Assembly (NCBI RefSeq): GCF_051903065.1
Contig: NZ_CP178439.1
Source of the DNA: Escherichia coli
GTDB taxonomy: Bacteria > Pseudomonadota > Gammaproteobacteria > Enterobacterales > Enterobacteriaceae
Length of the DNA stretch: 64,000 nucleotides
Strand: one strand, 5' to 3'
The position numbers were made by a program. The stretch's first letter is position 1, and every line of letters starts with the position of its first letter. Positions 45,701-51,700 of this stretch are shown piece after piece.

Positions 45701-48700
45701 CCGGGAAGTCTTTTTCCGTTGGTGCGCCTGCTGACACCCGCCGCTTCGGTTTTGTTCAGAAGGATGACTGTCATCCGGAACGCAGGCTCATGACCCACCT
45801 TTCAGCGCAGGGAATGCAGGCCAACCAGCAGATATTTTTTCTGTCCGACGGCGCGGATAATCTCAGGGACCTCCAGTTCGGTATGTACCCTGAGTCAACG
45901 CATGTGCTGGACTGGTTTCATATCACCATGAGGCTGAAGGTGCTCATGCAATATGCCCGGGGACTGCTGGTATCAGATCCAGAGGCGGGGAGTAAAGTTC
46001 TGGCACTGCTGGAAAGCATTAAACGATATCTCTGGCATGGCAATGTTGTCGCTGCGCTGGAACATATTGATAATTGCGTTATGTATTGCGATGACCCTGA
46101 ACTCAGCTATCCTAGCCTGAAATCCCTGCAAAAACATCTGGATGAAATGTATACCTACATCCGGAATAATAAGATGATGATCCCAAACTACGGCGAAATG
46201 CGTCGGTACGGAGAGCCGGTATCAACCGCGTTTGTGGAATCCACGATCAATGAAGTGATCGCCAGACGAATGGCCAAAAAGCAGCAGATGCAGTGGAGCA
46301 GAAAAGGGGCTCATTATTTGTTACAGACCCGGACCGCCGTTTTGAATAACGAACTGCAGGATAAATTTGTCTGCTGGTATCCGGGTTTTCAAAGTGACGG
46401 GAAGGGACCAGCGATGGCAGCATAGCTCACGCTGCCCCAATATTTTTTATGCTCTCGGTCGTATGGAAGCTGGACCGCCTCGGTCGTGATCTTCGTCATC
46501 TCATTAATACAGTGCACGACCTGACCGCGAGGGGGACCGGTCTGAAAGTGCTGACCGGTCACGGGGCGACTATCGACACAACAACGGCCGCTGGCAAGCT
46601 TGTCTTCGGTATCTTTGCCGCACTGGCGGAGTTTGAGCGCGAACTGATTGCTGAAAGAACGACTGCAGGTCTGGCATCAGCAAGAGCCCGTGGGCGGAAC
46701 GGCGGCCGACCTTATAAAATGACGCCAGTCAAACTGCGACTGGCAATGGCATCAATGGGACAATCAGAAACAAAGGTCAGTACGCTATGCCAGGAACTTG
46801 GGATAACCCGGCAAACTTTGTACAGGCATATTTCCCCTGTTGGTCAACTGCGGGCGGACGGGATCAAGCTGCTCAACCGTGGATAATTTGAACGGACGGA
46901 AAAATCTGGGGTTCCGGCGTAGTACCCCTATCACCTCCACATTTTTGCAACAGTGCCTTATAAATGGCAGCCTTATGTTTACTTGCCAAGATGGGCTACC
47001 ATATGATGTTTTATACTGAGCAATATTAATATTATCTTTAATGGAAAAATTAAGCCCACTAAGTGACCCACTGCTATATGGCTCTATTGTGAAGACGCCT
47101 GAGGGTAAAAATTTATACATGGTTGTCCCTATGTCTATTATTGCAAGGTTGACAATATTATTCGTTTTATAAATTTGAGCGTTTAAAATCACACATCAAA
47201 GCAATTAGTCAGGATAAACAACAATACCCAGTGCTTCGAGAATCAGTTCTTGCTGCCAGGCTGCAATTTTGATACCTGATGTATCGACTTTGCGGGGATC
47301 TAAACCGTCGAGTTCGGCGTGGCATAAATTGGCACCCTGTAGGCTAAATTGCCCCCAGACATCTTCGGAAAAAACACCTCGACTTAAGTCTGACTCTTTC
47401 AGTGATGCACCCGCTAGGTTCGTTCCTATCCAGCGATTTTCAAACAACTCACATTTTTCTAAACAAACCCTCTCCATATTGGCATAGGAAAGATTACATC
47501 CAGAAATAAATGCTGAGCAAAAGTACATACGATTACTCACTTGATGGGCAAAGTTTGTTCGGGAAAAGTTGGCACCTTTTAAATCACACGCACGGAACTC
47601 TATACCGTAGCAATTGGCATTACTGAAGTTTGCCATCGCAAGTTGGCATTGTTGGAAACTTGCATCACGAAGATCTGCGACATCAAAGTGGCAGCCTTCG
47701 ATATCACCCTGTTCAATGAACTTGCAGTTGACGAATGTCGTATCACGCAAGTTAGCACGTCGAAAGTCGCTGCGAATGAATGTGCAAGCGGTGAAGGTGA
47801 GATCACTTAAGTCTTTATGTGAAAAGTTGTGGTGCCGATATGTATGATTGTAGGTTTCCATGAGTACTCCTTGTTGAAAGGAGGGCTAGACTACCATTAT
47901 ACATATGCCAAGACATTAAAATAAAAGCCTGTTACATCAACACATTACAACCCCTCAATTTACCTGTTTTAAGTGGTCAAATTGGCGCGTAGAGCGCCTA
48001 TCGCTCTTGCATTGGCACGCGGCCCTGTTGAAAAAAGTTATTCGCTTTAGATAGGGTTAGGAGAGCCGTGCTTCGCCGGTAAAAAATCGGACTATCCGAC
48101 GCAGGGCGGACTCATCGGCGGAGAAGCAAACTTTGACTATATCTCCCTACACTTGGAAGAGGGCTAGACTGGCCCCATAGATCACCAGACACTTCGACTC
48201 TCTTAAAATAAGAGGTAGTCTTGGAACTATGTTTAATACCAGTCAGAACGATAAGATGGTTGAAGTGTTATCAGGACCTGAGCGGCGTCGGCGTCGTACA
48301 CCGCAGGAAAAAATTGCCATTATTCAGCAGACTATGGAGCCCGGTATGACCGTGTCTCATGTCGCGCGCCTGCATGGCATCAATGCAAACCAGATATTCA
48401 AATGGCGCAAGCAATATTAAGACGGTTCACTGACGGCTGTTGCATCGGGCGAGGAAGTGGTGCCGGCCTCCGAACTCGCTGCCGCCAATAAGCAAATTCG
48501 CGAACTCCAGCGCCTTCTGGGCAAAAAGACGATGGAAGCCGAGATACTCAAAGAGGCCGTGGAGTTCGGCCGGGCAAAAAAATGGATTGCGCATGCGCCC
48601 TCGTTGCCTGGGAACGACGAATAAGCGACGTTTGCAGAAGTCTTGGCGTGTCGCGTGCGCAGTTGAGCATTCGGGTTCACCGGCCATCTGACTGACAGGA

Positions 48701-51700
48701 TCGCAGACGGCAGCCCCGTTCTGACGATACCACCGTATTGTCCCGGATAAACATGGCGGTGGCTGACCTGCCGACGTATGGTTATCGCCGTGTGTGGGCG
48801 CTGCTGCGACGGGAGTCGGAGCGGGACGGCCTGCCTGTGGTTAATGCAAAGCGGGTGTATCGCATTATGAGAACGCATAATCTGCTTCTTGAACGTAAAC
48901 CCGCTGATCCTTGCCGTAAGCGGGCCCATAAGGGGCGCGTAGCAGTAGCGGAAAGTAACCGGCGCTGGTGCTCAGATGGCTTTGAGTTCCGCTGTGATAA
49001 TGGCGAAAAGCTGCGGGTGACCTTCGCGCAGGACTGCTGCGACAGGGAGATCATTGACTGGGCAGCGAGCACCGGAGGCTATGACAAAGAAACGGTGCAG
49101 GATGTCATGCTGGGTGCGGTGGAAAAACGCTTCGGAAGGCAGTTGCCAACAGTGCCGGCGTTCGCCCGGTTGCTGGGACTGGAGCCTTGTACGACAGCAG
49201 TGCGAAGCCCGGAAAGCAATGGCATAGCAGAAAGCTTCGTGATGACGATAAAACGGGACTACATCAGCATCAGGATTTTAGGGGTCTGACGCTCAGTGGA
49301 ACGAAAACTCACGTTAAGCAACGTTTTCTGCCTCTGACGCCTCTTTTAATGGTCTCAGATGTCCTTTGGTCACCAGTTCTGCCAGCGTGAAGGAATAATG
49401 GCCGAGCATATTGATATGTCCGTGGCAAAGCGGGGAGAGGCGTGCGATATCTTCATCATTCAGTGTTTCACCCTGCGCCCGGAGATGATCCAGGGCTGCC
49501 TGCATATAAATAGTGTTCCATAACACGACGGCGTTAGTGACCAGCCCCAGTGTGCCCAGTTGATCTTCCTGACCGTCGGTATATCGTTTTCTTATCTCAC
49601 CTTTTTGACCGTGACAGATGGCTCTGGCAACGGCATGGCGACTTTCTCCCCGATTAAGCTGGGTCAGAATGCGCCGGCGGTAATCTTCATCATCAATATA
49701 ATTAAGCAGATACAGCGTTTTGTTGATGCGCCCCACTTCAATGATTGCCTGAGTCAGTCCGGAAGGACGTTCACTTTTCAGCAATGAACGGACCAGCACT
49801 GAAACCTGTACTTTGCCCAGCTTCAGGGAGCCAGCGGTCCGGATCATTTCGTCCCACTGAAGGACTATTTTTCGGGGATCTGATTGCCCTCTGGCAATAT
49901 CATTCAGCACGCCATAGTCGGCATCATGGTCCATTCGCCAGAAAACCGAAGCACCGGCATCAGCCAGGCGTGGAGAAAACTGGTATCCCAGCAGCCAGAA
50001 AAGGCCAAAGACAAGTTCGCTGGCACCTGCTGTATCGGTCATAATTTCGGTTGGATTCAGCCCGGTCTCCTGTTCCAGAAGACCTTCCAGCACAAAGATA
50101 GAGTCCCTCAGCGTCCCCGGTATAACGATGCCATGAAAGCCGGAATACTGATCGGACACAAAGTTGTACCAGGTGATCCCTCTGTTATTACCAAAGTATT
50201 TGCGGTTCGGTCCGGCATTGATTGTTCTGACTGGCGTAACAAAGCGCATTCCATCTGCAGATGCCACTTCTCCTCCACCCCATATCTGTGCCAGTGGCAG
50301 CGTTGCCTGAAAATCAACCAGTCTGGCATTAGCGCTGGTGATAGTTTCAGCCCGCAGATAGTTCGCTTTTGTCCAGTTCAGCCGGTGTCGGGTCAGTGCA
50401 GGAACATTTGATCTGATCAGTGGTTCCAGACCGATATTGCAGGCTTCAGCCATCAGCACGGCGCTGATGCTGACGGGCAGATCATCAACTCTGGCACTGG
50501 CTTCACTAGCATGGAAAAACTCATCAGCAAATCCGGTATGGGCGTTAATTTCGAGCAGCAACTCCGTTAAATCCACCGGAGGGAGTAGATCACTGATCAT
50601 TTTGCTCAGTCGTTTCAGACTGTCCGGCTCATCAAGACTGGCGAGGGGAGAAATTGTCAACCGGGGCTTCGGGCCAGAAACATCGAGTTCGACAGCCTCA
50701 TTTTCGCAAAGACGTGCAGCAACCTGTCTGTAACGACTATCAAGCTGATGACCCAGAGATTTTATTGCTTCCTGCGGGTCTGTCGGGTGCCCCAAAGAAC
50801 GATAAACCTTAATCCGGTTTGCCTGCCAGTCAGCACCCTGTAGTAATCTTGCACGAGGATCTCCCCACCGGTTACTGCCGGTAACGTAGACATCCCTCCG
50901 CCTCAGACTATCCTGCAGTTTACTGAGAAAGCAGAGCGTGTATCCCCTGCGGGTGATATGTTTTTCCTTGTTAATCACCAGCCGTTTCCATGACCGACTG
51001 ATAATTTCCGTTGGTGCGTCGTCAAAAAACTGCCGCCGTGAGCTGAACTCCCGGCTGAGGTAGTCACAGGCATTCAGAGTGGTAACCCCGGCAGGTGCGG
51101 ATGAAAATTTAACGGTATTCAGCAGATGGGGCAGGAAACGACGAACGCGCCCGTACTGCTCCACCATTTCTTCATGAAAATTATCGTCTGAGGGCCGGGC
51201 AATTTCACGGACAAGCGTGATGATTTCAGCCAGCTTTTGCCTTGGGATGTAGCTGAACACCTCAGCACGAATCGATTCGTCCGGTGTTTCTTCTTTCAGC
51301 AGGTACGAACATGCGCTGGCGAGCGCCAATGCAGATTTATCCAGATCCTTCAGCGAGCGGAGCCGTTTTTTCTGCCCAATCTTTCTGGCGTCACGGATGA
51401 TAACGGCCAGCATGGCGTCCAGAACGTCCAATGCATCATCCAGCGCCAGCGTTTCCCATGCAAGGACAAAGGCAACCAGAACCGCCATCCTTTTCTGCGG
51501 TGACATCCTGGCAATATTGAACACCGAAGTCATACCAGCATAACGTGCGAGATTTTTCAGGCGCACAGCCGGGAGTGTACTCAGGTTTTCAGCATGCAGG
51601 CCAAAATCGTTCAGAGTTTTCCAGCGTTCAATTGCTTCATTAAACGCCGGACCACTGATGGTCACAGGGCCCTTTTTCAGTGATTCCAGTAAAGACAGGC

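Follow-up and report, generated by a model that had tools for sequence, protein, structure and literature searches.

Two incomplete copies of an IS2-like insertion sequence lie in opposite orientations on either side of a set of beta-lactamase genes in a 64-kb window (the whole stretch of DNA analysed). The question they raise is whether the pair forms a bracket by which these genes were, or still could be, mobilised, or whether the two copies were brought together by other rearrangements.

Two truncated pieces of one element

Window positions 48330-49272 on the plus strand are, by sequence comparison, the reverse complement of positions 60306-61248 over 943 bp with 0 mismatches; chance is far too small to explain a perfect inverted repeat of this length within 64 kb. 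The two copies, here remnants A and B, together rebuild an IS2-like element of 1282 bp, figures that refine the approximately 950 bp of identical overlap and approximately 1283 bp of total length given in the original prediction. Its coordinates for copy B (60132-61248, minus strand) hold, with the outer end cut by IS26 at 61249; for copy A (48165-49280) the start holds but the end does not, since the IS-derived part stops at 49272 and positions 49273-49280 are not IS sequence. The region contains the following features:

47205-47861, minus strand: qnrS1, the constant neighbour of the ISEcl2 left end
48165-49272, plus strand: ISEcl2 remnant A, covering element nt 1-1108; the left terminal repeat is present, the right end absent
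48229-48420, plus strand: truncated orfA of 63 codons, ending in a premature TAA at 48418-48420
48576-48582, plus strand: A7 run, element nt 412-418 (60996-61002 in remnant B), kept in the intact Salmonella relative
48693-48695, plus strand: TGA nonsense codon in the orfB frame (60883-60885 in remnant B)
49152-49153, plus strand: junction of a 51-bp (17-amino-acid) deletion (60425-60426 in remnant B), from DNA and protein alignments
49273-49280: 8-nt spacer GGATTTTA separating the transposon from remnant A; 3 foreign nucleotides come first, then TTTTA
49281-57206: Tn2/Tn3-type TEM-1 transposon, with a 38-bp terminal repeat at each end
57207-60131, plus strand: PBP-blaLAP-2 segment, the usual neighbour of the ISEcl2 right end (order in pK245 and NZ_CP020344)
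57468-59198, plus strand: PBP (transpeptidase-domain) gene, from the annotation of the identical region in pG17-1
59263-60120, plus strand: blaLAP-2, from the same annotation
60132-61248, minus strand: ISEcl2 remnant B, covering element nt 166-1282; the right terminal repeat is present, the left end absent
61249-62068: IS26, cutting remnant B at element nt 166

The cargo between the inverted remnants is as first described, Tn2::ISEcp1-blaCTX-M followed by the PBP gene and blaLAP, and the alleles are TEM-1, blaCTX-M-55 and blaLAP-2. The 38-bp Tn3-family terminal repeat begins at 49281, and tnpA is interrupted by the ISEcp1-blaCTX-M-55 unit (52111-55081), which is flanked by the target duplication TATGA. 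The left terminal repeat of remnant A, TAGACTGGCCCC, begins at 48165; the right terminus of remnant B, ...GGGTCAAATCCA, reaches its outer end at 60132, at a distance of 11 bp from the stop codon of blaLAP-2. Each remnant thus contributes one end of the 1282-bp reconstruction, and these ends match at 28 of 41 aligned positions, as imperfect terminal inverted repeats (about 40 bp expected). The sequences flanking the reconstructed element, AGGGC and CTGTA, do not form a 5-bp target-site duplication.

ISEcl2 and the lesions in its transposase

The 1282-bp element is ISEcl2, a name that is based on later papers and on the distance to qnrS1: the gap of 303 bp between the left terminus at 48165 and the qnrS1 start at 47861 equals the value reported for ISEcl2 upstream of the qnrS1 start codon (PMC9044524). 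Remnants A and B are each 100% identical to the corresponding parts of the pK245 locus (3168-4275 and 3333-4449, respectively). The complete reconstruction recurs with 100% identity in all 40 of the best plasmid records listed, pK245 among them, and 1813 of 2071 matching plasmid records are at least 99% identical to it. In many plasmids the complete element sits between qnrS1 and blaLAP-2, with the uninterrupted order qnrS1 (minus), ISEcl2 (plus), blaLAP-2 (minus) and PBP gene (minus) in pK245 and NZ_CP020344.

The closest intact relatives of ISEcl2 are 1333-bp elements from Salmonella and other Enterobacterales (P0001; loci L004-L007, L012, L018, L019 and L021), whose nucleotide identity to it is 95.2-97.0% across the 1282 bp they have in common; in the Salmonella relative, the final 33 bp at the right end match ISEcl2 exactly and the transposase is 96% identical. 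They are present at several places in genomes, and 5-bp target duplications (AAATG, GTTTG, ATTTG) flank the majority of the copies. Measured against them, all three defects originally noted in both copies proved genuine. The in-frame TAA after orfA codon 63, at 61158-61160 in remnant B, stands where four intact relatives aligned as DNA have GAA and seven aligned as protein have E or Q. The TGA in the N-terminal extension of orfB replaces a tryptophan present in seven of seven relatives (TGG in the four aligned as DNA). Finally, the 51-bp deletion removes 17 residues, LEWLTDNGSAYRAHETR, that are present in seven of seven intact relatives and include the second catalytic Asp, the invariant Asp of the DNGS motif, so that the DDE triad is incomplete; after repair of the reading frames, OrfB covers only positions 3-66 of the 102 in the Pfam rve profile. 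In contrast to ISEcl2, the 1333-bp relatives keep GAA, TGG and the 51 bp, and they differ from it at two to six positions in the first 77 nt.

With two nonsense codons and a 51-bp deletion that destroy its transposase, the circulating ISEcl2 is a dead element, and the view that both copies derive from one progenitor unable to encode a transposase is upheld. Both stops and the deletion are indeed part of the canonical ISEcl2; that these might simply be its functional layout is contradicted by the intact relatives, which show them to be true lesions. In another plasmid, PGAP labels the equivalent of remnant A a pseudogene of an IS3 family transposase that is incomplete, frameshifted and interrupted by an internal stop. 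No lesion-free ISEcl2 was found, the closest intact elements being 95-97% identical; a JGI metagenome scan for an ISEcl2-type orfA without the TAA gave no match, nor did a scan for copies of the left terminus preceded at position -1 by A, G or T, which would lie outside the qnrS1 context. A look-up of the repaired 131-amino-acid OrfA found no record, and that of the defective 218-amino-acid ORF product gave one contig, from the familiar qnrS1 setting.

Among approximately 100,000 species-representative genomes, a single one, that of Brenneria sp. 4F2, has sequences identical to the first 77 nt of ISEcl2, the left end of the element; they lie at a minimum of five distinct sites. Since five sites imply that ISEcl2 or an intact twin has moved, the element cannot be called never mobile. 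ISEcl2 may be more than a plasmid fossil, and it is possible, if somewhat doubtful, that Brenneria sp. 4F2 or its relatives hold an intact, active progenitor; alternatively, the defective element may be mobilised there in trans. No Brenneria member was found among the listed members of the cluster of the closest transposase. Brenneria sp. 4F2 or its relatives could likewise hint at the type of host where the blaLAP/ISEcl2/qnrS1 junction originally formed.

Origin of the inverted arrangement

The five junctions of the region differ widely in their distribution. In 1738 plasmid records the left terminus still joins the qnrS1 flank without a break, and in 417 the right terminus joins the blaLAP flank. 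The junction of ISEcl2, broken at nt 1108, with a Tn3-type transposon occurs in 519 plasmid records, the junction of the transposon with the region upstream of the PBP gene in 84, and the junction of IS26 with ISEcl2 at nt 166 in approximately 64-66; the 28 single-piece records listed for the last are all plasmids of 215-450 kb. The junctions at nt 1108 and nt 166 have separate histories.

These distributions bear on a reading hinted at by the original prediction, in which a non-autonomous insertion sequence was duplicated locally and its inverted copies form a composite, potentially mobilisable beta-lactamase unit. The identity of the copies over 943 bp, their inverted orientation and the resistance genes between them agree with it, and the shared stops and deletion might seem a further sign. 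The same lesions, however, belong to the standard circulating ISEcl2 sequence and are inherited by every copy, so that they say nothing specific about this window. As a functional bracket the remnants fail: copy A has a left terminus only, facing outward at 48165, and copy B a right terminus only, facing inward to blaLAP-2 at 60132, while the outer end of copy B is an IS26 truncation. With one terminus per remnant the pair cannot act as a composite transposon, and since the right terminus faces the cargo, there would be no transposable unit even if a transposase were supplied from elsewhere. Moreover, target duplications are absent, the transposase is triply inactivated, both truncation junctions are common to tens to hundreds of plasmids in other contexts, and no case was seen of the segment 48165-61248 moving as a unit with new target duplications. 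Terminus orientation, missing target duplications and widely shared junctions are the grounds for rejecting this reading, which is very improbable.

The remnants are instead best explained as differently truncated ISEcl2 pieces, whose inverted duplication arose when two TEM-1 transposon copies recombined and was followed by an IS26 cut (probability approximately 0.8). In a first version of the locus, qnrS1 would have been followed by ISEcl2 truncated to nt 1-1108, with the TEM-1 transposon inserted 3 nt beyond the truncation; the TTTTA in the spacer is the target duplication of this earlier insertion. The same nt 1108 junction in the IncX1 plasmid NZ_CP020341 holds a complete 4949-bp transposon with perfect TAAAA on both sides. 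A second version would have kept ISEcl2-blaLAP-2-PBP and carried a further copy of the transposon upstream of the PBP gene. The two copies of the transposon would then have recombined, either by homology or at the res site, and so joined the versions in inverted orientation, and IS26 would later have deleted element nt 1-165 of the second ISEcl2 together with whatever lay past its left end. The order of events and the recombination within the transposon are proposed steps. The outer flanks of the TEM-1 transposon in the window do not match (TTTTA vs. TGTTA). Since no record of an intact PBP-side transposon flanked by TGTTA on both sides was found, we infer the independent insertion at that site; the crossover within the transposon could not be mapped for want of informative differences, with three mismatches to each of two reference copies.

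Other routes to an inverted pair can be weighed against this recombination scenario. A single replicative transposition within the molecule, by the TEM-1 transposon or by IS26, might have split one ISEcl2 and inverted one part, since events of this type reverse the stretch lying between the donor and target sites, and an element of each kind directly borders the remnants; yet it would duplicate a target of 5 or 8 bp, whereas 943 bp of ISEcl2 are present twice, and the nt 1108 junction, with its target normally duplicated, exists in plasmids without blaLAP-2 or the IS26 junction. The size of the duplication is the ground for rejecting this candidate, and we regard it as most unlikely. An ancestor with a complete ISEcl2 and a separate, inverted ISEcl2[166-1108], in which recombination across the 943-bp repeats flipped the intervening block, is somewhat less implausible, though still improbable: the order IS26, ISEcl2[166-1108], GGATTTTA and transposon is continuous in NZ_CP122390 and NZ_AP023199, and the LAP/PBP/TEM block has the opposite orientation in NZ_CP122390. 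A hybrid transposon would nevertheless still be required, so that the steps are only reordered, and NZ_CP122390 contains a tandem IS26-bounded amplification, so that its structure may be secondary. Such an ancestor would be an inversion isomer of the same structure and not a different origin. An assembly artefact might be suspected in a region rich in repeats, with several IS26 copies and two ISEcl2 remnants; this explanation has the least to commend it, as the same 15.4-kb arrangement occurs with 99.9-100% identity in many complete plasmids across hosts, sources and countries.

The only plausible present activity of the pair lies in its 943-bp inverted homology, a substrate on which host recombination could flip the 11-kb block between the remnants; this homology can also confuse plasmid assemblies and comparisons.

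The resistance region and ISEcl2 among known elements

The remnants are part of a 15.4-kb region composed of qnrS1, ΔISEcl2, the TEM-1 transposon with ISEcp1-blaCTX-M-55, the PBP gene, blaLAP-2, ΔISEcl2 and IS26. The 25 best records listed match it at 99.9-100% identity, 45 records cover at least 80% of it at one place, and dozens of large IncHI2 plasmids share it. Its core has been published as the unit qnrS1-IS3-Tn3-orf-blaCTX-M-55 (PMC8093823, PMC9396133); this unit, optionally with ISEcp1 at its end and known from IncHI2 plasmids and from Salmonella and E. coli chromosomes, corresponds to window positions 47205 to approximately 55081, and its "IS3" is remnant A. The second remnant beside blaLAP-2 and the inverted-repeat relationship are not discussed in these two papers. 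The observation is therefore real but ordinary, since ISEcl2 and the core unit were already known. The IncHI2 plasmid pSal016 has 259,529 bp (PMC9396133); a Salmonella plasmid record of the same length, with weever as its source as for pSal016, carries the IS26/ISEcl2 junction at nt 166.

Beyond annotation the remnants matter little, but they are useful as markers of ancestry: the junctions at nt 1108 and nt 166 tell apart lineages of the qnrS1, blaCTX-M-55 and blaLAP-2 region that IncHI2 plasmids disseminate among Salmonella, E. coli, Enterobacter and Klebsiella. The truncated arrangement ΔISEcl2-qnrS1 has been called a common platform (PMC5034289, PMC5027574). Movement of qnrS1 by the present-day element's own transposase, left open or treated as likely in the published accounts consulted, cannot have occurred; consequently, IS26, ISKpn19, Tn3-family elements and plasmid transfer account better for the spread of this resistance region.

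Compared with published ISEcl2, the window shows no sequence difference; what differs is the form, two overlapping and oppositely truncated pieces in place of one copy. The inactivation of the transposase is not stated in the published descriptions consulted. Judged by its domains, ISEcl2 is an IS2-like member of the IS3 family and not IS2 itself. The repaired element has HTH_Tnp_1 in OrfA (3e-20) and HTH_21, rve and rve_3 in OrfB, and scores above the NCBIfam cut-off for transpos_IS3 (168 vs. 160), whereas the IS2-specific cut-offs are not reached (TnpA 214.4 vs. 229; TnpB 415.1 vs. 597); its fusion protein shares approximately 72% amino-acid identity with an IS2 family transposase. Like E. 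coli IS2, it combines HTH_Tnp_1 in OrfA and an integrase core in OrfB with an A-rich motif at the orfA/orfB overlap, here the A7 run, which lies where the -1 frameshift of IS3-family elements takes place and would serve as the slippery site. Unlike E. coli IS2, ISEcl2 has two nonsense codons and no second catalytic Asp, and its length falls 51 bp short of that of its intact relatives.

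Two overlapping remnants of an IS2-like element

The two inverted partial copies of an IS2-group element in the original prediction are confirmed by an exact inverted match: plus-strand 48330-49272 and the reverse complement of 60306-61248 agree over 943 bp, with 0 mismatches (the repeat search gave 946 nt, a slight overshoot of its extension; the exact comparison gives 943 bp). Joined, the copies yield a 1282-bp element, to which copy A contributes nt 1-1108 and copy B nt 166-1282; the predicted coordinates and sizes were correct to within a few bases.

Features of the two remnants and their surroundings
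48165, plus strand: start of copy A, terminal repeat TAGACTGGCCCC
49272, plus strand: end of the IS-derived part of copy A
49273-49280: 8 nt, GGATTTTA, between the end of copy A and the transposon
49281: start of the 38-bp terminal repeat of the Tn3-family transposon
52111-55081: ISEcp1-blaCTX-M-55 unit inserted in the transposon's tnpA, with the 5-bp target duplication TATGA (52106-55086 with duplications)
60132, minus strand: outer end of the copy B right terminus, ...GGGTCAAATCCA, 11 bp beyond the stop codon of blaLAP-2
61249-62068: IS26 copy, truncating copy B at 61248

The element is identified as ISEcl2, a name based on later papers (PMC9044524; PMC5034289; PMC5027574) and on position; its left terminus and the start codon of qnrS1 are 303 bp apart in the window, the distance published for ISEcl2 (PMC9044524), and ΔISEcl2-qnrS1 is described as a widespread platform (PMC5034289; PMC5027574). 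RefSeq annotates an equivalent copy as [quoted passage not shown]. Both remnants also carry a 170-codon ORF antisense to the IS coding frames (48417-48929, minus strand; 60649-61161, plus strand), which in such GC-rich coding DNA probably arose by chance.

Transposase decay and inheritance of ISEcl2

Copies A and B alike carry a TAA after codon 63 of the orfA frame and a TGA in the orfB frame. The repaired OrfB was searched against a large protein collection, and the repaired fusion protein was aligned with seven intact relatives, among them a Salmonella transposase (96% identical to the repaired fusion) and an IS2 family transposase (72%); the repaired OrfA gave no match in its look-up. In the protein alignment the TGA site is W in all seven relatives and the TAA site E or Q; the 17 residues LEWLTDNGSAYRAHETR, which include the invariant Asp of the DNGS motif, occur in all seven and are absent from the window element, which matches only positions 3-66 of 102 in the Pfam integrase core profile. 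At the DNA level, intact 1333-bp relatives from Salmonella chromosomes, one Salmonella plasmid and three metagenome or read-archive contigs share 95.2-97.0% identity over the common 1282 bp, and every one of them keeps GAA, TGG and the extra 51 bp. Their location at differing sites, for most with 5-bp target duplications (AAATG, GTTTG, ATTTG), suggests that they are mobile. Since these relatives are intact at all three lesion sites and show signs of mobility, the window element belongs, in decayed form, to a live IS2-like lineage, and its TAA and TGA are mutations rather than recoding signals. The predicted in-frame TAA, orfB TGA and missing DNGS Asp prove to be real lesions by both the seven intact relatives and the 1333-bp DNA alignments.

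The 1282-bp reconstruction is complete and 100% identical in the best 40 of 2071 matching plasmid records (hosts Klebsiella, Enterobacter, Escherichia, Shigella and Salmonella), and 1813 of the 2071 reach at least 99% identity. In pK245 and NZ_CP020344 the element is uninterrupted, in the order ISKpn19 / qnrS1(-) / IS(+) / blaLAP-2(-) / PBP(-); window blocks A and B are both 100% identical to this single pK245 block, and overlap there by 943 bp. The three lesions are lineage-wide, not particular to the window. Descent of both copies from one defective progenitor is borne out, but the lesions, shared across the lineage, do not mark a local duplication.

In the plasmid collection, the junction of the left terminus with the qnrS1 flank is intact in 1738 records and that of the right terminus with the blaLAP flank in 417. 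In evenly spaced samples of the left- and right-junction rankings, the matches confined to the IS half were all at most 98% identical except for one further-truncated right-end piece (100% identical); those at or below 98% represent a relative, not ISEcl2. The ISEcl2 flanks, AGGGC and CTGTA, form no target duplication. Because the flanks are unmatched and the sampled IS-only matches are nearly all mere relatives, the ISEcl2 of resistance plasmids resembles one inherited insertion that has been carried along passively and truncated again and again; resting on samples, this reading leaves room for rare exceptions.

Among about 100,000 species-representative genomes, only that of Brenneria sp. 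4F2 holds the exact 38-nt left terminus, which lies terminally on five contigs, each time next to a different flank (loci L013-L017; NZ_JAKMAJ010000016, 17, 54, 72 and 77). All five copies are identical to ISEcl2 in the first 77 nt, unlike the recovered intact relatives, which all differ there at 2-6 positions; this combination suggests, as seen from the first 77 nt, that several copies of ISEcl2 or of an intact twin exist in this bacterium, which may be the natural host of an active ISEcl2 progenitor, a minor lead. In the search for a lesion-free ISEcl2, two JGI metagenome scans found neither a left terminus away from qnrS1 nor an ISEcl2-type orfA lacking the TAA.

Origin and plasticity of the inverted arrangement

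The junction of ISEcl2 nt 1108, GGATTTTA and the transposon end occurs in 519 plasmid records, including small IncX plasmids without blaLAP-2; among them, NZ_CP020341 holds a complete 4949-bp transposon with TAAAA at both flanks, a normal insertion 3 nt past an older ISEcl2 truncation. The junction of the transposon's TEM-end with TGTTAAAAGC... upstream of the PBP gene occurs in 84 records, among them NZ_CP020344, where ISEcl2 is complete and all parts are in ancestral orientation. The window TEM-1 transposon (49281-57206) has mismatched flanks, TTTTA on the left (49276-49280), as in the ISEcl2 nt 1108 junction, and TGTTA on the right (57207-57211), as in the PBP-upstream junction. Because these flanks differ, whereas TAAAA is perfectly duplicated around the transposon that shares this left junction in NZ_CP020341, they indicate a hybrid of two insertions.

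In the simplest reading, two TEM-1 transposon copies, one in each version of the region, would have recombined homologously or at res, so that qnrS1-ISEcl2[1-1108] and PBP-blaLAP-2-ISEcl2 came to lie inverted to each other on the two sides of the hybrid transposon; IS26 would later have deleted nt 1-165 from the second ISEcl2 copy. The transposon copies compared held no informative differences, and no crossover point could be mapped. About 64-66 records hold the IS26/ISEcl2 nt 166 junction; the listed ones with it in a single piece, 28 in number, are all plasmids of 215-450 kb. Inversion by a single replicative transposition is ruled out, as it would duplicate 5-8 bp and not the 943 bp found here. 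The PBP (transpeptidase-domain) gene beside blaLAP-2 is full-length in the window, within the segment 57207-59198; in sampled plasmid records its side of the region either meets the transposon end at one and the same base (the 84 records) or is cut by IS26 (as in pK245).

The two copies do not make up a composite transposon, because the left terminus is present only in copy A and the right only in copy B, where it points inward to blaLAP-2, and the transposase is dead; that the copies "bracket" the beta-lactamase region carries no meaning for transposition. The pair still provides 943 bp of perfect inverted homology, which encloses a block of 11 kb. A flip of this block would give a complete ISEcl2 beside qnrS1 and a fragment, nt 166-1108, between transposon and IS26; two plasmids carry the junction of such a fragment without interruption. 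In one of them, pKP9650-1 (NZ_CP122390), the LAP/PBP/TEM block is oriented oppositely to the window, and IS26-ISEcl2[166-1108]-partial transposon-blaCTX-M-55 forms a tandem repeat of 6145-bp spacing, an IS26-bounded amplification. The region is evidently plastic as judged from these sequences, and pKP9650-1 shows ongoing IS26-driven and homology-driven rearrangement; active flipping is putative.

Relation to known resistance modules

At least five copies or parts of IS26 lie in the window (~33045-33867, ~37420-38202, ~38572-39394, ~43150-43970 and 61249-62068). An IS26-bounded segment left of ISKpn19 (38575-43969) carries aac(3)-IId and a DUF3883 gene; pG17-1 (NZ_CP079936) has this segment in inverted orientation, after the IS26 that adjoins ISEcl2 remnant B.

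The cited literature on element and unit does not spell out the triple inactivation of ISEcl2, nor does it note the piece beside blaLAP-2 as a second, overlapping ISEcl2 remnant. Across 46800-62200 (15.4 kb), the best 25 plasmid records listed, all of 180-450 kb, show 99.9-100% identity to the window, and 45 records cover at least 80% of this stretch in one place; among the hosts are Salmonella, Enterobacter, Klebsiella and E. albertii, together with one Vibrio cholerae, and the two inspected carrier plasmids type as IncHI2A. The feature is already known, the core of the region having been published as the unit qnrS1-IS3-Tn3-orf-blaCTX-M-55 (PMC8093823; PMC9396133).
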